Source: a virus
Strand: one strand, 5' to 3'
DNA: 6,953 nucleotides
Virus record (IMG/VR): IMGVR_UViG_3300029226_000131
Span: 1 to 6,953 of that record
The first letter of the stretch is position 1. The number at the start of each line of letters is the position of its first letter. This document shows, piece after piece, positions 1 through 6,953 of the stretch. Made by a program: the position numbers and the translations under genes. The notes under the pieces are model-generated. The model did not search any database and had not been told where the DNA came from. It worked only from the letters and a program-made list of their open reading frames with translations.

Positions 1-15
1 AGACAGAACAGACCG

Positions 16-44
16 AAATCGCATAATGCGGATTGATGTTAAAT
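16..44 (+). other. dif-like XerC/XerD recombination site A: AAATCGCATAA-TGCGGAT-TGATGTTAAAT, with a 7-nt central region
   Basis: Compared with E. coli dif (GGTGCGCATAA TGTATA TTATGTTAAAT), the inner XerC arm CGCATAA is identical and the XerD arm matches 10/11. A second copy lies at 6820..6848. Confidence 0.6.
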
Positions 45-63
45 GTACTGCATCCTCGAAAAC

Positions 64-100
64 GAAAATGACATTTTCTGGTTGGGAAAATGCCATTTTA
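64..100. repeat. Two near-identical 15-bp palindromes, GAAAATGaCATTTTC (64..78) and GAAAATGcCATTTTA (86..100), with centres 22 bp apart
   Basis: Read directly from the sequence. Each is a 7-1-7 palindrome. The two can also pair with each other at 13/15 positions around the loop 79..85. Repeated at 6868..6904. Confidence 0.7.
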
Positions 101-114
101 AAAAGTTGCAGTGC

Positions 115-149
115 AAGTAACATAATCACGCAGTTACATTATGCGAAAT
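115..149 (-). other. dif-like XerC/XerD site B, inverted relative to site A. The minus strand reads ATTTCGCATAA-TGTAACTGCGTGA-TTATGTTACTT, with a 13-nt central region.
   Basis: The XerC arm shares the 10-mer TCGCATAATG with site A. The XerD arm matches TTATGTTAAAT at 9/11. Repeated at 6919..6953. Confidence 0.55.
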
Positions 150-247
150 CAATCTTCATATTGATCAGACAACGAGATATATAAATATTTAACACTGTAA
201 TAACCAAATAAAAGTGTAAAAGTAATCATTCCAACCAAGTAATCCAT
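149..247 (-). CDS. Hypothetical 32-aa single-pass membrane peptide (MDYLVGMITFTLLFGYYSVKYLYISLSDQYED). It is below the cutoff of the supplied ORF track.
   Basis: Hand translation: ATG at 247..245 and TGA at 151..149. A GAGGTG Shine-Dalgarno sits 7 nt upstream and overlaps the stop of the 259..465 ORF (TGAGGTG). The peptide has a hydrophobic core and an acidic tail. Confidence 0.3.
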   Translation of the reverse strand: MDYLVGMITFTLLFGYYSVKYLYISLSDQYED

Positions 248-258
248 TAGCAAACACC

Positions 259-465
259 TCAACTATTATAAAGTTTATAAATTTGATCTGCGATTAAATA
301 AGCCTTATCAAACTCATCAAGATCTTTATAAACACCACAATTTTTAAATGCATCAAGAACAGCAAAGAAAGATTTATAAAGTTCAGAACCTTTATCATTA
401 AACCTATTGTTCACAACCTCTATTGCTAATTCCTCTAAATATTCTAACGCTGTCTTGAATTCCAT
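259..465 (-). CDS. Hypothetical 68-aa acidic, predicted all-helical cytoplasmic protein. It is accessory cargo downstream of gI/Zot.
   Basis: ORF on the operon strand, separated from gI by a 120-nt spacer. No signal peptide or TM segment. Net negative charge: 13 D/E versus 8 K/R by count. No convincing SD before the ATG. No family recognised. Confidence 0.55.
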   Translation of the reverse strand: MEFKTALEYLEELAIEVVNNRFNDKGSELYKSFFAVLDAFKNCGVYKDLDEFDKAYLIADQIYKLYNS

Positions 466-585
466 AATTATCAGTTCGCGCCTACGGACGCTCTAAAAAT
501 AAAGATTAAGATCATAAGGGAGCTTGTAATCAAAGAGAAGAAATTTCAATGTTTTAATTGCTTCTCGTCACTCGTAGACACTCGT

Positions 586-1272
586 TTAAAATGCACTAAA
601 ACTTGCTAAATTATTTGCCCCGTTTGTTGTCTTAGCTTCAAGTCGGCTATCTACTTGATTATTTGCGATCTGAGCTGGTGGCGGTACATTACTAGGAGTT
701 GATTGAGGCTGCTGTTGTTGTATTTGACTAGGTGAAGTCTGTTGATTGGTTTTTGCATTGAAATAATCAAATGGTCGTCTTGAACTGTCGTGCATAAGGT
801 CCTTGCAGACTTTTTTATCAATTCCGTCAATTTTTGTTCCCTGTTGGTCATATGCTGAACATGAATTTTTCGTACAAAAACAACCGCTAAAAGTACGGCT
901 ATTGACAACATTAGGGGTAATGTTAGGTTTAAAAGCGAATGGATCTGATACTTCATAAGTAGGCTCAGAAGATGAAACAAAATCAACAACTGGAGCACTA
1001 GCAGGATTTTCATTTTGATTTTGAACTTGCGTAGGGTCTGTTGGGCTTGAAGCTGGTAATTGATTAGGATTTGATTTATCTGGTTGTTTTGATGTTGATT
1101 CATTTTTTTTAGATTCCTGAGATGTCGAAGATGCTTTATCTCCAGTAAATGTAGATACAAGTGGATTTTTACCAGTACCAGATAAAAGAAACATGGCGAT
1201 GATAAAAAATAGAACCGCAAGGACAAGACAAATAACAATTTTCTTTGGAATACGTTTTTTACGAGTATGCAT
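586..1272 (-). CDS. Possible in-frame internal restart product, analogous to pXI (residues 279-506 of pI)
   Basis: The in-frame ATG at 1272..1270 gives MHTRKKRIPKK followed by the TM helix. This mirrors the f1 pXI start (MKLTKIYLKKFSRV plus TM). No clear SD is present. Confidence 0.3.
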   Translation of the reverse strand: MHTRKKRIPKKIVICLVLAVLFFIIAMFLLSGTGKNPLVSTFTGDKASSTSQESKKNESTSKQPDKSNPNQLPASSPTDPTQVQNQNENPASAPVVDFVSSSEPTYEVSDPFAFKPNITPNVVNSRTFSGCFCTKNSCSAYDQQGTKIDGIDKKVCKDLMHDSSRRPFDYFNAKTNQQTSPSQIQQQQPQSTPSNVPPPAQIANNQVDSRLEAKTTNGANNLASFSAF

Positions 1273-2106
1273 CGTTGATGATTTATACAAGTTGTAAACG
1301 TGCTTTGGAAATCTCCAACGACTTATATTTTCAGCACGAGCAATTGATTTGATTGCATTCGGTGAATCTTGTACTACAGACCACTCCATACGCATTGATT
1401 GTTCCCAGCCAAAAATATTGACTAGATGTATATGCATACTGGCTAATTTTCTGATGTATTTATGAACAAATGATGGTTCTTGAGTGATGAATAAAAAATC
1501 ATAACCCTTATGACGATGGATTGTCAGCTCTTTAACAATCGGGTCTGCTTTAGTTGTTTCATCTGAAAAAATTGGAATTAATTGTGCTTCATCAATGACA
1601 AAATAGGAACCTTGAGGCGTCTTTCTCCAGTCGCAATCAGGTGGCAAAGGACGGCACTGGACAAGCTTTAAATCGGCAATATTGGTATAAATAGTGCGGA
1701 CAGGTTTAAAACCCTGAAACTTGGTATTTTCATTGACATTAATGTTTTCAATAATCAGATTTAATAATGAAATTCTTTCAAAATAATATGCTGGGAAGTT
1801 ATTAACAATATCGTCAGTCTGAGGATTACTAATAACATTAATAAAATATTCAGTTTTTAAGAAATCAAAAAAATCAGGTTCTAAAAATATAATTTCAGAT
1901 GTTCTTTCTAAACCTTGACCTTTAGTAACTAGTATTAAATCAAGATATTCTTGAAGTTTTAAATTAGCAATTTTCTCAAAAAAAGCTTTAGCATAATAAT
2001 AATTATGTTTTAAATTTGCGATGTTATCTCTTGATAAATCTAGCATCATTTCTGTTGCTAGTAGAGATTTCCCCGAACCCGGAGTCGCTGATAAAAAGTT
2101 AATCAT
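586..2106 (-). CDS. gI: Assembly NTPase pI (Zot family)
   Basis: N-terminal Walker A (SATPGSGKS) and Walker B-like motif (YFVIDEAQ). An NLYKSST motif precedes a basic stretch and a TM helix (KKIVICLVLAVLFFIIAMFLL), as in f1 pI. It is the last gene of the morphogenesis block, and its ATG overlaps the gVI stop (ATGA, 2103..2106). Confidence 0.93.
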   Translation of the reverse strand: MINFLSATPGSGKSLLATEMMLDLSRDNIANLKHNYYYAKAFFEKIANLKLQEYLDLILVTKGQGLERTSEIIFLEPDFFDFLKTEYFINVISNPQTDDIVNNFPAYYFERISLLNLIIENINVNENTKFQGFKPVRTIYTNIADLKLVQCRPLPPDCDWRKTPQGSYFVIDEAQLIPIFSDETTKADPIVKELTIHRHKGYDFLFITQEPSFVHKYIRKLASMHIHLVNIFGWEQSMRMEWSVVQDSPNAIKSIARAENISRWRFPKHVYNLYKSSTMHTRKKRIPKKIVICLVLAVLFFIIAMFLLSGTGKNPLVSTFTGDKASSTSQESKKNESTSKQPDKSNPNQLPASSPTDPTQVQNQNENPASAPVVDFVSSSEPTYEVSDPFAFKPNITPNVVNSRTFSGCFCTKNSCSAYDQQGTKIDGIDKKVCKDLMHDSSRRPFDYFNAKTNQQTSPSQIQQQQPQSTPSNVPPPAQIANNQVDSRLEAKTTNGANNLASFSAF

Positions 2107-2441
2107 TTCTTTCTACCCGCAACTAACGCAGGCTGTAAATCTGTTGTAAATGACCAAACTACAGCAGTTGTAATGTATCCAAAAATGATGGTTAAGCACG
2201 TATCAAATTGTGCTACACCTAGATAAGCCAAAAAATACGAGCCTACTGGGAAGCCCTCATTTGAATAATTTGCAATATTATAAAGAGCCGCTTTTGAATC
2301 AAAAATAACTTTATCTAAATAAGTGTACATTGCTAAAACTAAAGGAATAATAATAGCCATAGCCGCAGCTAGACGAACATAACTTGTTCCAGAAAATTGA
2401 GTTAATATCGTTTTTAATACTTCATATAATTTTTTAAACAT
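2103..2441 (-). CDS. gVI: Minor coat / virion-cap protein, pVI-like
   Basis: 112 aa, the same length as f1 pVI, and strongly hydrophobic with several TM segments. It lies between gIII and gI. The assignment rests on position and composition, not on recognised sequence identity. Confidence 0.7.
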   Translation of the reverse strand: MFKKLYEVLKTILTQFSGTSYVRLAAAMAIIIPLVLAMYTYLDKVIFDSKAALYNIANYSNEGFPVGSYFLAYLGVAQFDTCLTIIFGYITTAVVWSFTTDLQPALVAGRKK

Positions 2442-2445
2442 GTAA

Positions 2446-3858
2446 TCACCACTTAATTTCTTTTCTAACTACCGTTTCATATAAAATCCAAAGCCCTGTT
2501 AAATGAGCAATGAGTTGAAGCGGATAACCGAGAAACGTGAAAATCACACAAAGCCAATTTAAACTAATTGTGAAACTTCCCTTAAAATACTGAGTTTCTA
2601 ATACATATGGAACGTCTGGTGGGCATTGTTTCGAAAGTGAAAAAACAGTATCAAAAGCGCGTGAGAAAATACCTTGGTCATCAATTTCCGGTCTTTCTGG
2701 TTCTTCTTCTTTTTCTGGTTCTTCTTTAGTCCACTCTATCCATTCACATACAACACTTGCCCAATCACAAAATGCAGGTAATAGAGATTCCGATGAACCA
2801 GTACCAGTAGTTGTACTTGTAGAACCATCAGGATTTTTTGTTGTACTTGTAGAATCTGTTTTTGTATCTGTTGCAGTATTTGCAGGCGTTACATAGCCCT
2901 CAACAGTTTTGGTACCATCAGTGATTTTGTAATAACCAGGCCTTTTAGGGTCAGTCGGTTTATTTACTGAATTATCTATCGCATTTGTAATGTCTTTTGA
3001 TGCATCTTTAGCTAACTGATTACTAGCAGAATCAATAGTTTGACCGTTTGAACCATCATAAGAGTAAGCATTATTAATAATAGTATTAGATATATTATTC
3101 GTTGTATTGTTCGTTATATATTGAGTAATTTTATTCTCTAAATCAGAATTGGAAACAGGTGTTGAAGTGCTAGGATTATTAGGGTCATAATTTTGATTTT
3201 TAATTCTATTAACTGAAAACCAATCTAAGAGATAACCAGCAGAATTATATCCTATGCAATTATATCGATCAGAAGTTGAAATAGTACATGAAGGATCTTT
3301 AAGACCATTTTGAACAAAACATAATTCAAATTCTTCAATAGCATCTGCAGAATTATTAAACTTTGTAGGACTTTTACATACTGGATCACCATCAGACCAA
3401 ACATTATTAGAAACCCAATAATATTCACCTAGTGAACCGTCTTTCTTACTTACTTTACCGCCCTCATCCATTACCCATCCAACACCCTTAATTAATGCAG
3501 CAACAGCAGCAGAACCTAAGAAACTAGGTAAAGTTGCTTTACCTAGTGCTTTGGCTTTGTCGAGTCTTGAAACAATAGCTTTTGCAACACCTGATGGATT
3601 AATAGGTTTGGTAACAGAACCACCGCCCGTGACTTTACCGCCACTTGAGGCACTCATAGAAGAAGAAGCAGATTGTGTTACATTTTTACCATCATTGGCG
3701 GCTGCAATCGAGCGATCTAACATGTCGTGAGTACGCTGCATTGCATTTGCATATTCTCTGCGTGCTGCTTCTTGATTCATGTAATGTTGTTCAGGCGTAA
3801 TTGCAAGCGTTACTTGTGAAAAAAATAATAGAGAGAAAATAATAAAAATAGTTTTCAT
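2446..3858 (-). CDS. gIII: Adsorption / minor coat protein, pIII-like
   Basis: Signal peptide MKTIFIIFSLLFFSQVTLA followed by ITPEQ. Cys-containing N-terminal domains. S/T/G/N-rich linkers (for example TDTKTDSTSTTKNPDGSTSTTTGTGSSES). C-terminal hydrophobic anchor followed by RKEIKW. It lies after the gVIII terminator. Confidence 0.85.
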   Translation of the reverse strand: MKTIFIIFSLLFFSQVTLAITPEQHYMNQEAARREYANAMQRTHDMLDRSIAAANDGKNVTQSASSSMSASSGGKVTGGGSVTKPINPSGVAKAIVSRLDKAKALGKATLPSFLGSAAVAALIKGVGWVMDEGGKVSKKDGSLGEYYWVSNNVWSDGDPVCKSPTKFNNSADAIEEFELCFVQNGLKDPSCTISTSDRYNCIGYNSAGYLLDWFSVNRIKNQNYDPNNPSTSTPVSNSDLENKITQYITNNTTNNISNTIINNAYSYDGSNGQTIDSASNQLAKDASKDITNAIDNSVNKPTDPKRPGYYKITDGTKTVEGYVTPANTATDTKTDSTSTTKNPDGSTSTTTGTGSSESLLPAFCDWASVVCEWIEWTKEEPEKEEEPERPEIDDQGIFSRAFDTVFSLSKQCPPDVPYVLETQYFKGSFTISLNWLCVIFTFLGYPLQLIAHLTGLWILYETVVRKEIKW

Positions 3859-3926
3859 GGCAGTAATGCCTTAAAAATTAAATATGAAAAAAAAGAAAGT
3901 GTAATGAGAAGAATTAAATTTGACAT
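3855..3926 (-). CDS. Hypothetical 23-aa hydrophobic peptide (MSNLILLITLSFFSYLIFKALLP) immediately upstream of gIII
   Basis: Hand translation: an AGGGG SD sits 6 nt before the ATG at 3926. The stop TGA overlaps the gIII ATG (ATGA, 3855..3858). It could be a leader or coupling ORF or a tiny coat component. Confidence 0.3.
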   Translation of the reverse strand: MSNLILLITLSFFSYLIFKALLP

Positions 3927-3939
3927 GCTGAACCCCTAT

Positions 3940-3966
3940 ATAAAAAAGGGAGCGAACTCCCTTTTC
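3940..3966 (-). terminator. Rho-independent terminator after the major coat gene
   Basis: The minus-strand RNA reads AAAAGGGAG-UUCG-CUCCCUUUU followed by UUAUAU. That is a 9-bp stem, a UUCG tetraloop and a 6-U run, 8 nt after the gVIII stop. Ff phages have a terminator in the same place. Confidence 0.85.
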
Positions 3967-3973
3967 TTGGTTA

Positions 3974-4264
3974 TTAGCCAGCTCGACGAATACCGCCACG
4001 AGAGTTTGTGAAAGCAATAATTACAAGGGTGATGCCGATTGCAACAACAAAAAGCGCACCCAAGCTAGTACCGATACCACCTAAAGCGGCTTGTGCTGGG
4101 GCCAAAAAATCAGGAATAGCTGAACCTTCAGCAGCATTTGCATTTGATGCAACTAAAACACCAGTGGCAACAGCGGCAGGCGCAAGTTTTGATTTGAATT
4201 TTTGGAACCAAGTTTTTTTATGAACTTCTTGTTGTTCAATTACTTCTACGTTTTTAAAAGTCAT
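3974..4264 (-). CDS. gVIII: Major coat protein precursor, pVIII-like
   Basis: Strong SD (AGGAGA) upstream. The leader ends in SNANA, followed by AEGS. The predicted 52-aa mature protein has an acidic N-terminus (AEGSAIPDF), a hydrophobic core (GALFVVAIGITLVIIAF) and a basic C-terminus (SRGGIRRAG). Confidence 0.9.
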   Translation of the reverse strand: MTFKNVEVIEQQEVHKKTWFQKFKSKLAPAAVATGVLVASNANAAEGSAIPDFLAPAQAALGGIGTSLGALFVVAIGITLVIIAFTNSRGGIRRAG

Positions 4265-4274
4265 GAGGTTTCTC

Positions 4275-4478
4275 CTAAAGTTTGACTTTTTTTAATCCAT
4301 AAACTGACCACTTGTAAGCCAGAATCATGGTGTATATCGACCACTGAAGCCCCACAAATTTAAAAACTGATGCTAATGGTAAGTACTGTTCTAGATATTG
4401 ATCCAGATTCACTGACATGCAGTTAATACCTACCTGTTGAGCATTTTCTAAAATTTGTAGTGATTCACAAATGATCAA
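4275..4478 (-). CDS. Small membrane protein, candidate minor coat (pVII/pIX analog). The start is uncertain: TTG at 4478 gives 67 aa, ATG at 4418 gives 47 aa.
   Basis: The ORF ends inside the gVIII SD. The 47-aa version (MSVNLDQYLEQYLPLASVFKFVGLQWSIYTMILAYKWSVYGLKKVKL) has an acidic N-terminus, a hydrophobic core and a basic tail, with AGGTAGGT 9 nt upstream of its ATG. Confidence 0.55.
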   Translation of the reverse strand: MIICESLQILENAQQVGINCMSVNLDQYLEQYLPLASVFKFVGLQWSIYTMILAYKWSVYGLKKVKL

Positions 4479-4576
4479 TTTTTATTCCCCTTACATTGGT
4501 AAAAATGCAAGAAGTAGGAATTTTGATTAGGTAAGACACAACCGCATTTCTTGCATTTAATTTGTAGTTGTGTCAT
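4475..4576 (-). CDS. Doubtful 33-aa Cys-rich ORF (MTQLQIKCKKCGCVLPNQNSYFLHFYQCKGNKN)
   Basis: Hand translation: weak SD, and the stop overlaps the TTG start at 4478 (TTGA). The ORF contains an 11-bp inverted repeat, so the stretch may be structured non-coding DNA instead. Confidence 0.2.
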   Translation of the reverse strand: MTQLQIKCKKCGCVLPNQNSYFLHFYQCKGNKN

Positions 4577-4602
4577 GATTATTATTACCTAAGTTATTGA
4601 TT

Positions 4603-4630
4603 TATTTACATATTATACATTATGCGAAGT
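4603..4630 (-). other. Third dif-like site C. The minus strand reads ACTTCGCATAA-TGTATA-ATATGTAAATA.
   Basis: It contains the same 10-mer, TCGCATAATG, as sites A and B. The central region is identical to E. coli dif (TGTATA). The XerD arm is degenerate (7/11). It lies in the gap between two small ORFs. Confidence 0.45.
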
Positions 4631-4638
4631 TGGTATAA

Positions 4639-4743
4639 TTAAGGTATTGATAAGTAATGTCTTGTTTGCATTTCTGAACATTTAGCGTCAAACAATGCAA
4701 ACACACAAAGACCTAAAACCGTAATAAATACGAACTCTTTCAT
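4639..4743 (-). CDS. Hypothetical 34-aa hydrophobic protein (MKEFVFITVLGLCVFALFDAKCSEMQTRHYLSIP), pVII-position minor coat candidate
   Basis: Hand translation: the ATG overlaps the gV stop (ATGA, 4741..4744 region). Its size and hydrophobicity resemble Ff pVII (33 aa), which also directly follows gV. Confidence 0.5.
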   Translation of the reverse strand: MKEFVFITVLGLCVFALFDAKCSEMQTRHYLSIP

Positions 4744-5039
4744 CACTTAGCAACTTGCTGGTGGTTTGGTTTAACAACTGGCTTAACACTAAAAATCTGC
4801 ATCTGTGCACCAAACTTTGTTTGTGACTCTACAAATTGAATTTCGACTTCTTGGGCGTTGTCTGCACATTCAACAAGGACTGCTTGAATCTGTTCTACTG
4901 GCATAACTCCCGATCCAACGGATAAGTTATAGCGAACTGGTGAAAATACAGTTGTAGATAGATAAACCTTTTCTACACCGTCTTTCTCAGTCTTATAGGC
5001 AGTTGGTAAAATTGTGCGTGTATTGAATTGAACTTGCAT
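4743..5039 (-). CDS. gV: ssDNA-binding protein, pV-position. The likely start is ATG at 5039 (98 aa); the ORF track extends it to a TTG at 5060.
   Basis: It immediately follows gII. A GAGGAGG SD sits 9 nt before the ATG at 5039 and overlaps the gII stop (TGAGGAGG). The C-terminal segment FGAQMQIFSVKPVVK resembles f1 pV FGSLMIDRLRLVPAK. Otherwise the call is positional. Confidence 0.7.
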   Translation of the reverse strand: MQVQFNTRTILPTAYKTEKDGVEKVYLSTTVFSPVRYNLSVGSGVMPVEQIQAVLVECADNAQEVEIQFVESQTKFGAQMQIFSVKPVVKPNHQQVAK

Positions 5040-5052
5040 GGTTAAAGCCTCC

Positions 5053-5421
5053 TCAGGCAACTAAATGTAAACGCTGTTTAGGCGTGTATTGTGAAACTGG
5101 TAATTGATAATCTTGTGGTAATTGATCGCACATCTTGAGTTCAAACATGCGTACAAATGGAATGACCTTACCGTTTGGATTCTTAGCAAGGTTTTGTAAG
5201 TGTGATTTGCTAATTTCGCATTCTAAAAGCGAGTTGATGCACTTATGAAATTGAGCTTTGCTATAAATTTTTTGAGTAGCTTGTAAACCCATTTGACGTA
5301 CTAATGAGTAAAATTTCATAGCGTTCATTGCTTTGATATAACTGGGCTTACCAGTCTTTGTATATGTAACCAACTTAGATTTAAGTAAATCTAAGATTTC
5401 TCCATCTGATGAAAAATTCAT
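5053..5421 (-). CDS. gX: Nested in-frame gX-like product (C-terminal 122 aa of pII)
   Basis: The in-frame ATG at 5421 is preceded by AAGGG 7 nt upstream. MNFSSDGEILDLLKSK aligns with the f1 pX start MNIYDDSAVLDAIQSK (remembered sequence). Confidence 0.5.
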   Translation of the reverse strand: MNFSSDGEILDLLKSKLVTYTKTGKPSYIKAMNAMKFYSLVRQMGLQATQKIYSKAQFHKCINSLLECEISKSHLQNLAKNPNGKVIPFVRMFELKMCDQLPQDYQLPVSQYTPKQRLHLVA

Positions 5422-6276
5422 ATATTTACCCTTCATTGTGTCTAAGATCGGGTCGAAAGCTACGTGCCAGAGGCGTAGCAATAATTCTGGCTGTTCATGT
5501 TGAAGCTTTATTAGCTCAAATAAATTTGTCGGATAACCGTTTTTGGTCATGTATGTTTTACATATACGAGCTTCTAAACGAAGAACTGCATTAGCAAACG
5601 GTAAGGCATCATGCATTGCAAAAACTAAGGCTTTAGAGCGTTGACAGCCCTTGTCTGCTTGTTTCTGAATCTTGTTAAGTTGGCTTTTTACTTCTTCGAA
5701 TTTGCCGTAAGCCTTTGGACGAACACTGGCACCGTCATTACCCCAAGTAATATAGTTTTCATATTTGATTTGACGGGCTTTACGGTGTCCAGATGCAAGA
5801 TTTGCCATGTAATCCAAAACAGGTTGAACCATGTTCTGATGAGGCAATCTAAATAAGTAAGTCGTATCAAGGTGCAATACTTCGGTTTTTTCAAAATCTA
5901 AAATTGGAACCAAATTAGGAAATGCTTCAATCAACATGCCAAGCATTTGATCTGCACCTAATTCAATAGATTCAAAACCATATACGTTGTGACCTTGAAG
6001 CAATTTAAGCGGTGATGCTTTGATTTCAACATAAGGCGGTGTATTCATCGTATTTGTATAGAACTTCATAGCCATATCAGTAAAGTCTGAGGCTAATGAC
6101 TCATAAGGATGATACAAATCCCCTGTTATTGTCTGACCATCATCTGACTTACTTACATGGCGTGTAGCTGCAGGAATTCCATAGTCGCGAATATCACCAT
6201 TAAACCAATGGTGATTATCAAGACTGCGAACAAACGCAATATTGATTGGAATCGCTAAACGGAGAAAATCGAGCAT
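5053..6276 (-). CDS. gII: Rolling-circle replication initiator / nickase, Ff gene II family
   Basis: Several blocks match remembered f1 pII. MLDFLRLAIP matches MIDMLVLRLPF. HPYESLAS matches HPFESLPT. VEIKASPLKLLQGHNVYG matches VEIKASPAKVLQGHNVFG. LRLEARICKTYM..NLFELI matches VRFEARIKTRYL..NLFDAI. ECEISKSHLQNL..VIPFVRM matches ECGIPKSQLMNL..VVPLVRF. Confidence 0.93.
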   Translation of the reverse strand: MLDFLRLAIPINIAFVRSLDNHHWFNGDIRDYGIPAATRHVSKSDDGQTITGDLYHPYESLASDFTDMAMKFYTNTMNTPPYVEIKASPLKLLQGHNVYGFESIELGADQMLGMLIEAFPNLVPILDFEKTEVLHLDTTYLFRLPHQNMVQPVLDYMANLASGHRKARQIKYENYITWGNDGASVRPKAYGKFEEVKSQLNKIQKQADKGCQRSKALVFAMHDALPFANAVLRLEARICKTYMTKNGYPTNLFELIKLQHEQPELLLRLWHVAFDPILDTMKGKYMNFSSDGEILDLLKSKLVTYTKTGKPSYIKAMNAMKFYSLVRQMGLQATQKIYSKAQFHKCINSLLECEISKSHLQNLAKNPNGKVIPFVRMFELKMCDQLPQDYQLPVSQYTPKQRLHLVA

Positions 6277-6390
6277 ATGAAATCACAAATTCATAAATCA
6301 CTTTTAACACATAAAAACATAAATCACATATGAATTCAATCACAAATCACAAATTCATTTAGAATTAAGTGATTTTAAAAGGATTATCAA
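6277..6390. promoter_or_regulatory. Divergent control region between gII and the RHH regulator. It carries six AATCAC[A/T] heptads and a 15-bp direct repeat.
   Basis: Direct heptads lie at 6281..6287, 6296..6302, 6322..6328, 6338..6344 and 6345..6351 (the last two are contiguous). One inverted heptad lies at 6368..6374. AAATCACAAATTCAT occurs at 6280..6294 and 6344..6358. A possible plus-strand -10 TAGAAT lies at 6360..6365, and SD AAGGA at 6379..6383. Confidence 0.7.
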
Positions 6391-6594
6391 ATGGCTAAGA
6401 CATTTCGTTTTACAGATGAAGAAGAACAAGCACTTAATGAAGTTGCTTTAAAATTGAATAGAGATTTAGTTAAAGCAGGTAAAAAGCCTTTGAGAGATAC
6501 TGAAATATTTCATGAAATCATCAAACAAACTTTACTTGATGGAATAATTGAAGTTAATAGAGATGGAAATGTAAAAGTAGAAACAAAAAACTAA
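6391..6594 (+). CDS. Small transcriptional regulator, ribbon-helix-helix-like, in the rstR position (candidate phage repressor)
   Basis: 67 aa. The N-terminal KTFRFT strand followed by the helix DEEEQALNEVALKL is the typical RHH (Arc/CopG/omega) pattern. It is the only plus-strand gene, is divergent from gII, and has SD AAGGA 7 nt upstream. Confidence 0.65.
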   Translation: MAKTFRFTDEEEQALNEVALKLNRDLVKAGKKPLRDTEIFHEIIKQTLLDGIIEVNRDGNVKVETKN

Positions 6595-6710
6595 AATTAG
6601 TGATCAATATTTAATCGAAATAGTGGTTAAATAAGAAACATTCTCAATAACTCTGAAAGCTCCGTTATATATAGCTCACAGCAGGAATTGAAAAAAACTT
6701 TCGAGACTCA

Positions 6711-6736
6711 GGCACACTATTAGATAGCAGTGTGCC
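6711..6736 (-). other. Candidate plus-strand replication origin hairpin with an Ff-like nick motif
   Basis: The minus strand reads GGCACACT-GCTATCTAAT-AGTGTGCC, an 8-bp stem with a 10-nt loop. TAATAGTG spans the loop and 3' arm exactly as in f1 ori (GAGTCCAC-GTTCTTTAATA-GTGGACTC, nicked before AATAGTGG). Confidence 0.5.
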
Positions 6737-6749
6737 CTATCTCAAATCT

Positions 6750-6818
6750 GGTTCTGTTCTGCTCGGTCGGGCGGTCGAACGTCCCTCCTCCCTTCCTTGG
6801 TCGCAGACAGAACAGACC
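6750..6818. repeat. Imperfect 11-bp inverted repeat enclosing a 46-nt GC-rich loop that has its own hairpin. Candidate packaging signal or minus-strand origin.
   Basis: CTGTTCTG (6754..6761) pairs with CAGAACAG (6808..6815), and flanking pairs extend the stem. Bases 6761..6804 are 31/44 G+C. An inner hairpin spans 6769..6785 (GGGCG-GTCGAA-CGtCCC). CGGTCG occurs twice. A 17-nt homopyrimidine run lies at 6782..6798. Confidence 0.5.
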
Positions 6819-6953
6819 GAAATCGCATAATGCGGATTGATGTTAAATGTACTGCATCCTCGAAAACGAAAATGACATTTTCTGGTTGGGAAAATGCCAT
6901 TTTAAAAAGTTGCAGTGCAAGTAACATAATCACGCAGTTACATTATGCGAAAT
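6805..6953. repeat. Copy 2 of the exact 149-bp direct repeat. It carries second copies of dif-like sites A (6820..6848) and B (6919..6953) and of the twin palindromes (6868..6904).
   Basis: Identical to 1..149. Confidence 0.97.

Follow-up and report, generated by a model that had tools for sequence, protein, structure and literature searches.

A hairpin at positions 16-149 of the IMG/VR virus record IMGVR_UViG_3300029226_000131 (positions 1 to 6,953 of the record; this whole stretch of 6,953 nucleotides (nt) is referred to as the window) is interpreted here, with a probability of about 0.75, as the attachment site of an element of the CTXphi type, which would integrate by borrowing XerC and XerD, recombinases of its host. 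The element is a filamentous phage (inovirus), and its host genus, judged from the relatives of its replication protein (Rep), is Acinetobacter. The original prediction had taken the phage to lysogenise through host XerCD at the dif site. This interpretation is supported by junctions of the attL and attR type in related prophages, because these junctions match the products of XerC-side recombination as it occurs in CTXphi. The substrate would be the folded single strand rather than the duplex.

The hairpin, of about 130 nt, lies between orf37 and a divergent open reading frame (ORF) of 67 amino acids (aa), and its stem is formed by two dif-like sites that are inverted relative to each other. 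Site A, which resembles attP2 of CTXphi, occupies positions 16..44 of the plus strand, with the XerC arm AAATCGCATAA at 16-26, the 7-nt centre TGCGGAT at 27-33, and the XerD arm TGATGTTAAAT at 34-44. Site B, which resembles attP1, is read on the minus strand from 149 to 115, with the XerC arm ATTTCGCATAA at 149-139, the 13-nt centre TGTAACTGCGTGA at 138-126, and the XerD arm TTATGTTACTT at 125-115. The XerD arms are separated by a spacer of 70 nt (45..114), where 45-52 pairs with 107-114 as an extension of the stem, and 64-78 pairs with 86-100 to form an inner hairpin with the loop 79-85. The site sequences and the inverted orientation had been given correctly in the original prediction. Neither site is a canonical duplex dif, as their centres are 13 nt and 7 nt long (TGCGGAT for site A, against TGTATA in dif); the centre of site B starts with TGTA, as does that of dif. 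In inoviruses, the packaged strand usually has the sense of the genes. Because the morphogenesis and replication genes of this phage are all read from the minus strand, the packaged strand is probably the minus strand of the window, on which site B would provide the "top" strand with the XerC crossover site and site A the bottom strand of the folded site.

Recounting of the predicted fold reproduced the stems described previously: 10/10 Watson-Crick pairs between the XerC arms (19-28 with 137-146), 15 Watson-Crick pairs and one G-T pair among 19 positions between the XerD arms and their extensions (34-52 with 107-125), and 13/15 pairs in the inner stem (64-78 with 86-100). The central bubble stood only in part: the TGTAAC of site B, which adjoins the XerC arm, is unpaired, but the TGCG of the site B centre pairs with the CGCA of site A. 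G35 of site A forms a single-base bulge in this fold, and site A can alternatively be parsed as a 6-nt centre with the canonical TTATGTTAAAT arm carrying one extra base. When positions 1-170 were folded with DNA parameters, the energy was −32.5 kcal/mol for the plus strand (z = −5.40) and −31.9 kcal/mol for the minus strand, the probable packaged strand (z = −5.97), and none of 200 shuffles folded as well on either strand. A stable hairpin is accordingly predicted on both strands.

At lenient thresholds, a single dif-like site arises 0.35 times per shuffled copy of this AT-rich genome, and a lone site is therefore weak evidence. The statistic used instead was the occurrence of a convergent inverted pair of dif-like sites within 200 nt, which was found in 7 of 5000 shuffles. 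Terminator scans covering the window and the relative L025 gave nothing in the spacer on the phage strand; the inner hairpin is therefore not claimed as a terminator.

The junctions were determined in relatives with 70-95% Rep identity. The FadL-like gene on the right flank of the putative dif in loci of the Acinetobacter baumannii type was searched against a protein collection, and ten chromosomal contexts of A. baumannii were obtained in this way. The native dif of this species, in its empty state (L065, L061), reads ...actatataat TGTTCGTATAA TGTATA TTATGTTAAAT aaaagattt.... Locus L064 is a chromosome-level assembly that contains a prophage related to Acinetobacter phage M02. At its left edge, the left flank of the empty site and the XerC arm of dif are followed by the phage centre (TGTTCGTATAA joined to TGTGATGTTCAGA TTATGTTACTA...), and the distance from the left-flank gene to the junction is 880 nt, the same as in the empty site. 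The internal site B of this locus keeps the phage's own arm (AGTTCGCATAA joined to TGTGATGTTCAGA...). The right end of its array reads ACTTCGTATAA, TGTATA, TTATGTTAAAT and aaaagattt..., which is the arm of site2, an additional dif-like site described below, joined to the dif centre and XerD arm and to the right flank. The morphogenesis module of L051 runs straight into AGTTCGCATAA, TGTATA and TTATGTTAAAT, with the same right chromosomal flank behind them; this junction, where the arm of site B is joined to dif, has the form of the attR expected of a CTX-type event. Compared with the empty A. baumannii dif, the relatives are located at chromosomal dif and not at tRNA genes.

In A. bouvetii (L003) and A. 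johnsonii (L004), a homologous left chromosomal flank abuts site B, and the site A centre is identical to that of this phage (TGCGGAT) in the former and differs by one base (TGCAGAT) in the latter. All visible left ends (L003, L004, L045, L062 and L064) start at site B. At all loci, the XerC arm of site B goes with the upstream flank, and the centre and the XerD arm go with the downstream hairpin. The position of the crossover was examined in a table that lists, centre by centre for site B, the XerC arm together with the preceding 25 nt. With the centre TACGGCA, for instance, about 19 loci have the phage's own arm AGTTCGCATAA behind phage core sequence, TGTTCGTATAA stands behind the left flank of the chromosome in L045 and behind the end of a replication module in L042, and GCTTCGTATAA stands behind the end of a module of the Rep_trans type (L062, L063). 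Because the arm travels with its flank, the exchange is placed between position 7 of the XerC arm and the bases with which the centre starts, a point that corresponds to the expected XerC cut position. In native hairpins, the two XerC arms agree with each other at position 7 (C/C or T/T); the discordant combination T/C appears only at recombinant junctions, with the one exception of L052. No chromosomal junction at site A was found among the junctions examined, and this restriction of the junctions to site B agrees with the gene-sense strand being the recombining strand.

The position of these junctions, exactly at the border between arm and centre of site B and beside an otherwise empty dif, bears on the idea that the likeness to dif is incidental and that the hairpin is merely a replication or transcription signal (a minus-strand origin or a terminator), a miniature pdif pair of the plasmid type, or an assembly artefact. 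Filamentous phages require an intergenic hairpin as minus-strand origin, GC-rich stem-loops followed by T runs are seen in the spacers of relatives when the alignment is read by eye, Acinetobacter plasmids are rich in inverted pairs of XerC/D sites, and the contig ends right at the edge of site B. However, an inverted pair was rare in the shuffles, the terminator scans of the spacer in the window and in L025 were empty, and the spacer of about 70 nt is non-coding and not a gene module. The artefact was rejected because the same structure is found in dozens of independent assemblies, including complete chromosomes. In sum, this explanation is very improbable, and a possible dual role of the hairpin as an origin would not replace its role as an attachment site.

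The conservation of the hairpin was analyzed by orienting the loci with Rep on the plus strand and scanning them for the pattern of XerC arm, spacer and XerD arm. Nearly all scanned loci contain the same three sites, which are site B, the inverted site A, and site2. Site B lies on the gene strand with the arm TTATGTTAC/TTT and a centre of 7-13 nt, where the length is 10-13 nt in most lineages, including this phage, and 7-8 nt in some A. baumannii lineages. Site A lies in inverted orientation 35-105 nt downstream of site B, with a 7-nt centre and the arm TGATGTTAAAT. From Acinetobacter genomes and IMG/VR contigs, 43 distinct hairpins with an inverted pair were collected. In 42 of them, the XerC arms pair with each other over 8-11 bp and the XerD arms over 6-10 bp; the hairpins are 93-163 nt long, and their spacers vary in sequence and length and are unrelated between lineages. 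In the exception, L052, site2 is paired with a site A at a distance of 206 nt, and no pairs are formed between the XerD arms.

In an alignment of 16 diverse members, 97.8% of the alignment cells are paired, and 10 of the 29 consensus pairs show compensatory double changes. None of 500 column shuffles matched the observed paired fraction or the covariation score, and sliding the register by 1-3 columns reduced the pairing to 25-39%. The motif is kept, together with its covariation, in the 43 distinct related hairpins. The strongest covariation was observed for six pairs just outside the XerD arms and for the last position of the centre, and the covariation at the stem extension and at this last centre position is unexplained by any recombinase arm. 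The site A centre is 7 nt long and starts with TG, as in dif, in all but three of the site-A variants, and this start is found in nearly all lineages, even where the centre of site B starts with TA, TT or TC. This start agrees with the requirement in CTXphi that the bases beside the XerC cut match dif, and it would be sensible only if the strand that pairs with the arriving dif strand came from site A.

In the phage of Acinetobacter sp. ANC 3781 (L002/L011, positions 903-1063, 3122-3149 and 7214-7241), the three centres start with TA instead of TG (TATGATCGTGA, TACGGAT and TATAGA), which suggests that they are co-adapted to a host dif whose centre also differs. L002/L011 contain, in addition, a further dif-like site, ATTTCGTATAA TAGGCA TTATGTATCAC, about 200 nt ahead of site B.

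The compensatory changes have to be set against the alternative that site B recombines with dif as a plain duplex, in which case site A would have no role in recombination and the inverted repeat would be kept for some other reason. Duplex and folded substrates give the same junction products, and the 7-8-nt centres of some lineages are close to that of the VGJphi site, which is 29 bp long with a 7-bp centre. However, most lineages, this phage among them, carry the longer centres, and CTXphi attP1, with its 12-bp centre, reportedly cannot be used in duplex form (PMC4246890). In addition, site A is conserved with compensatory changes that include the centre-proximal and stem-extension positions, and its TG start matters only if the site A strand pairs with the incoming dif strand. 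A plain duplex reaction at site B is considered to be quite improbable.

Site2 was absent from the original prediction, and a 56-nt match to Acinetobacter phage M02 pointed to it. It is a duplex dif-like site at 4603..4630 of the minus strand, in the same orientation as site B, with the XerC arm ACTTCGCATAA, the centre TGTATA and the XerD arm ATATGTAAATA. The 6-nt centre is identical to that of Acinetobacter dif, and the XerD arm is degenerate, with matches at 7/11 positions. Both here and in relatives, where the XerD arm is ATATGTAAATA or a variant of it, site2 directly follows the gene for a protein resembling single-stranded DNA (ssDNA)-binding proteins. A core of 34-44 nt in this region is 90-100% identical in about 40 related loci, despite a Rep identity of only 70-95%, and site2 is the most conserved non-coding stretch of the family.

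At least 20 prophage arrays end with the XerC arm of site2 joined to the dif centre and XerD arm and to the right chromosomal flank. The usual layout is hairpin-Rep-site2-core-hairpin-Rep-dif (L003, L017, L060, L063, L064, L066 and L068), and L004, L005 and L007 consist of hairpin-Rep-dif only, without morphogenesis genes. The right ends at site2/dif indicate that recombination between site2 and dif is needed, for which deletion of a terminal core module, integration of a replication-only circle, or integration of the duplex replicative form (RF) beside a resident replication-only copy are possible routes. The idea that site2 or site B serves as a duplex docking target inside phage genomes was considered for L033 and was dropped, as sequential integration at regenerated dif explains that array equally.

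The abundance of such ends raises the alternative that site2 itself is the working attachment site, where the RF recombines with dif as in VGJphi and Ypfphi, and that the hairpin is secondary, as a leftover or helper site, a minus-strand origin or a structural operon end. The exact dif centre and the good XerC arm of site2, its conservation and the right ends of the arrays all favor this alternative, and one duplex integration beside a resident replication-only copy would produce a "replication-core-replication" array in a single step. However, a left junction consisting of the chromosome, the dif XerC arm, TGTATA and the site2 XerD arm was found in none of the arrays with a visible left end, all of which start at site B, and L051 shows the arm of site B fused to dif. 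The poor XerD arm also speaks against it, and the universally kept inverted partner with its compensatory changes would be left unexplained. Such a primary role of site2 is unlikely, and duplex integration via site2 is likewise unlikely as the sole mechanism.

The two kinds of site also coincide with the borders of exchanged modules. The morphogenesis module is 97-99% identical across relatives (97.4% for L064 against L068 and L033), and the replication modules of L064, L068 and L033 are unrelated, with a Phage_CRI Rep (about 34% identical to that of this phage), a Rep_trans Rep and a Phage_CRI Rep close to that of this phage. The homology of the core in these three loci starts at the first bases of site2, and the homology between L064 and L033 stops exactly at the border between the XerC arm and the centre of site B. 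Because the homology breaks at site2 and at site B, both Xer sites are borders of module reassortment. It is tentatively proposed, at somewhat less than even odds, that these phages have two-module genomes bordered by two Xer sites, one a folded site that works as a single strand only and serves one-way entry at dif, the other an internal duplex mimic of dif, through which XerCD would shed the core to give RS1-like satellites, dock incoming phages beside residents, and swap modules across unrelated Reps (two Phage_CRI lineages and Rep_trans), as a phage counterpart of pdif modules. For six of 30 site-A variants, the downstream sequence takes more than one form, and the change lies only a few bases from the XerC arm's outer edge; there may be a third recombination-prone border here. 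Identical hairpins joined to differing sequences just outside the XerC arm of site A were observed in L013, L016, L003, L017 and L064.

Several further observations were made on the arrays. The isolate-derived contig L039 (1-14303) contains at least six successive replication-only elements of three families, where each left junction lies at a site B bearing the XerC arm of the preceding element, and the array ends with GATTCGTATAA TGTATA TTATGTTAAAT and the right flank of A. baumannii. The record of phage M02 (L001, OQ693633) contains a perfect dif-type site, ACTTCGTATAA TGTATA TTATGTTAAAT, and a site of the site2 type (about 5927-5954 and 111-138); this "complete genome" record may have been derived from an integrated array and not from virion DNA. 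A different inovirus, with the Zot and pIII genes in the opposite orientation, lies to the right of the apparent dif in L004 (8636-8785), L007 (5591-5739), L009 (10759-10908), L035/L044 (from 2459) and L069 (reverse complement of 2290-9827). It has its own inverted pair of dif-like sites about 95 nt apart, with the 6-nt centres TGTATA and CGTATA. Its far end in L069 reads AAGTCGCATAA CTTCATT TTATGTTAAAT, where the centre is unlike that of dif, a hint that the crossover may be on the XerD side.

In the reaction proposed for the folded attachment site, site B and site A would pair on the packaged strand, the minus strand of the window, each arm with its counterpart (XerC with XerC, XerD with XerD), around the mismatched centre. 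The paired arms would form a look-alike of dif that exists in single-stranded DNA only. Host XerC, which by analogy with CTXphi would be the sole catalyst, would cut the site B strand between ATAA and TGT and exchange it with the top strand of the chromosomal dif, and replication would then fix the insertion. At the left edge, the XerC arm of dif would be joined to the centre of site B, and the remainder of the hairpin, now duplex and inactive, would come next; at the right edge, a working dif would be regenerated. Site2, which follows the replication module, would probably act by recombining with dif or with regenerated copies of it. Recombination between site2 and dif would explain why the arrays usually end in a replication-only copy, like RS1 beside CTXphi, and such a terminal copy would permit production of phage DNA by rolling-circle replication from a prophage that is unable to excise.

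Several points weigh against this mechanism. A prophage of this exact phage was not found, and the junctions come from the relatives only (70-95% Rep identity). The sequences are blind to the difference between single-strand and duplex recombination at site B because the products are identical, and a site B with a 7-8-nt centre, as in some A. baumannii lineages, might work as a duplex. The arm of site B is fused to dif in one of about 25 right-hand junctions (L051), the others being at site2, and the duplex route via site2 may account for much of the traffic. The covariation of the XerC arms could result partly from both arms tracking the XerC specificity of the host. Some mosaic breakpoints lie just outside the XerC arm of site A, where the model does not explain them, and the packaged strand is deduced from gene orientation only. 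The main uncertainty is whether the substrate is the folded single strand or the duplex, together with the share of the traffic that passes through site2.

The genome has a GC content of 35%, and its sizeable ORFs are nearly all on the minus strand. Positions 1-149 recur at 6805..6953 with 100% identity over 149 nt and a spacing of 6804. This exact terminal repeat indicates that the genome is a circle of 6,804 nt that was written out with an overlap; the second copy contains the same hairpin as a duplicate, and the genome has one hairpin. The boundary of the overlap is base 149, the outermost base of the site B XerC arm, and in phage orientation the first base of the contig is the first base of the attachment site. 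The position of the contig end at the edge of site B may reflect branching of the assembly graph at a prophage or array junction, rather than chance.

The replication/regulation ("RS-like") module occupies 4631..6804 on the minus strand and comprises the ssDNA-binding-like ORF (4743-5060, minus strand, phrog_19820), Rep gpII (5053-6276, minus strand, Pfam PF05144 at 1.6e-41 and PF05155), the 67-aa regulator-like ORF that is divergent from Rep (6391-6594, plus strand, phrog_5642), and a GC-rich second hairpin; phrog_702 was also among the PHROGs matches of this module. The morphogenesis ("core") module occupies 150..4602 on the minus strand and comprises small ORFs, the major coat protein (3974-4264), a pIII-like protein (2446-3858), a pVI-like protein (2103-2441), Zot (586-2106, PF05707), orf68 and orf37, where the four genes with coordinates are all on the minus strand. 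Pfam and PHROGs scans of all ORFs of at least 60 aa gave no match to an integrase, recombinase or transposase, in agreement with the earlier statement that the phage has no integrase; these ORFs are all assigned to Rep, the ssDNA-binding-like protein, the coat, pIII-like, pVI-like and Zot proteins, and small proteins.

A 52-aa ORF at 26-184 of the plus strand spans the inverted repeat, has no family match, and is most likely not a gene. Exact direct repeats of 15 nt, AAATCACAAATTCAT, at 6280 and 6344, with related copies, occupy 6280-6358 between the start codon of Rep and the divergent 67-aa ORF, and they resemble operator or iteron sites. The second hairpin runs from 6746-6804 into 1-19 (equivalent to 6805-6823), with the arms GGTCTGTTCTGTCTG and CAGAACAGAACC and a loop that is unusually rich in GC and purines compared with the 35% GC of the genome. 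It adjoins site A on the phage strand, GC-rich sequence is found beside site A in relatives too (e.g., L004), and it is a candidate replication origin.

When the whole genome was compared with annotated phage records, only a 10% match to a Rep gene and the 56-nt match to Acinetobacter phage M02 were obtained, and no close relative appears to be described among these records. The relatives of Rep among cellular genomes are from Acinetobacter only (A. bouvetii, A. johnsonii, A. albensis, A. tjernbergiae and further species), which supplies the host identification called for in the original prediction, and Rep also matches 50 IMG/VR contigs.

To our knowledge, single-strand integration by XerC alone via a folded site has been worked out experimentally essentially for CTXphi alone. 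What is described here would be the folded-site mechanism already known, in another genus and supplemented by an internal duplex site. The results point to the same design throughout a whole phage family of a distant genus, to which the hospital pathogen A. baumannii belongs, and at least three different replication modules are combined with this design. It offers a separate system in which the rules of the reaction can be probed, such as the homology beside the XerC cut, the part played by bulges and mismatches, and irreversibility. It also provides exact rules for the borders of prophages at Acinetobacter dif, where automated tools perform poorly on arrays, and the added duplex site suggests an origin for satellites and mosaic phages. 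No description of a CTX-type folded attP in Acinetobacter was found in the searched literature, apart from one speculative sentence in PMC11209303. In that study, the Af filamentous prophages of A. baumannii are described with "replication modules on both sides", and the mechanism is not given (PMC11209303); the present results account for this layout.

In CTXphi, attP1 (AGTGCGTATTA TGTGGCGCGGCA TTATGTTGAGG) has a 12-nt centre whose first triplet, TGT, is that of dif1, and attP2 (AATGCGTATTA TACGCCA TTATGTTACGG) has a 7-nt centre; they stand in inverted orientation between ctxB and rstR with about 90 bp separating them, and on the plus strand they form a forked hairpin of about 150 nt (PMC4246890, PMC3089051). 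Integration needs XerC catalysis only, leaving one functional dif and two non-functional sites (PMC4246890, PMC3089051). The figures given for CTXphi in the original prediction agree with these reports (centres of 12 bp and 5-7 bp, and a spacer of about 90 bp; PMC4246890, PMC3089051); for the El Tor CTXphi, the centres are 12 nt and 7 nt (PMC3089051).

The present phage resembles CTXphi in many respects. A phage recombinase is lacking in both, and in both a divergent regulator and the last core gene enclose two inverted dif-like sites that are separated by about 70-90 nt. One centre is long (12 nt in CTXphi and 13 nt here) and starts with TGT as in dif, the other is 7 nt, and in the stem, which is a predicted one here, the XerC arms pair with each other, as do the XerD arms. 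The crossover is on the XerC side of the site with the long centre, as read here in relatives and from sequence only; one edge of the prophage carries two inactive dif-like sites and the other a working dif, and the arrays include replication-only copies, as with RS1. The differences are that the recombinases belong to another host class (Acinetobacter, Moraxellaceae), that Rep is of the Phage_CRI type and at most distantly related to RstA, and that the system here is known from sequence alone. An extra duplex site, site2, lies at the border between replication and core modules here, and we know of no counterpart of it in CTXphi. The replication-only copies end at this site and not at a second hairpin-derived site.

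With VGJphi, Ypfphi and CUS-1phi, the phage shares a lone duplex dif-like site with a centre that fits the host dif, namely site2, as well as right prophage ends that are site2/dif hybrids and tandem arrays at dif. It differs from them in that the left junction of the site2 type was not found in the arrays with a visible left end, that the inverted pair is also present, and that the XerD arm of site2 matches at only 7/11 positions; a prophage of the VGJphi/Ypfphi type would be flanked on both sides by attP/dif hybrids of one and the same site, whereas only the right ends fit this pattern here. CUS-1phi and Ypfphi also show features of single-strand integration, which are thus not exclusive to CTXphi (2011 review, PMC3089051). 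In combining a good XerC arm with a poor XerD arm, site2 resembles the sites of TLCphi and the gonococcal genetic island, where the poor XerD arms have been proposed to limit excision driven by FtsK. An XafT-like activator, by which TLCphi differs, did not turn up here, where no search was aimed at XafT, and the side of the crossover at site2 is indeterminable from the sequences. The pdif sites of Acinetobacter plasmids occur in the same genus with the same recombinases, and there too Xer sites border exchangeable modules. However, the modules here belong to phage genomes and not to plasmids, the inverted pair encloses a non-coding spacer of about 70 nt without a credible ORF instead of gene cargo, and the borders of the modules, site B and site2, are directly oriented and of different kinds.

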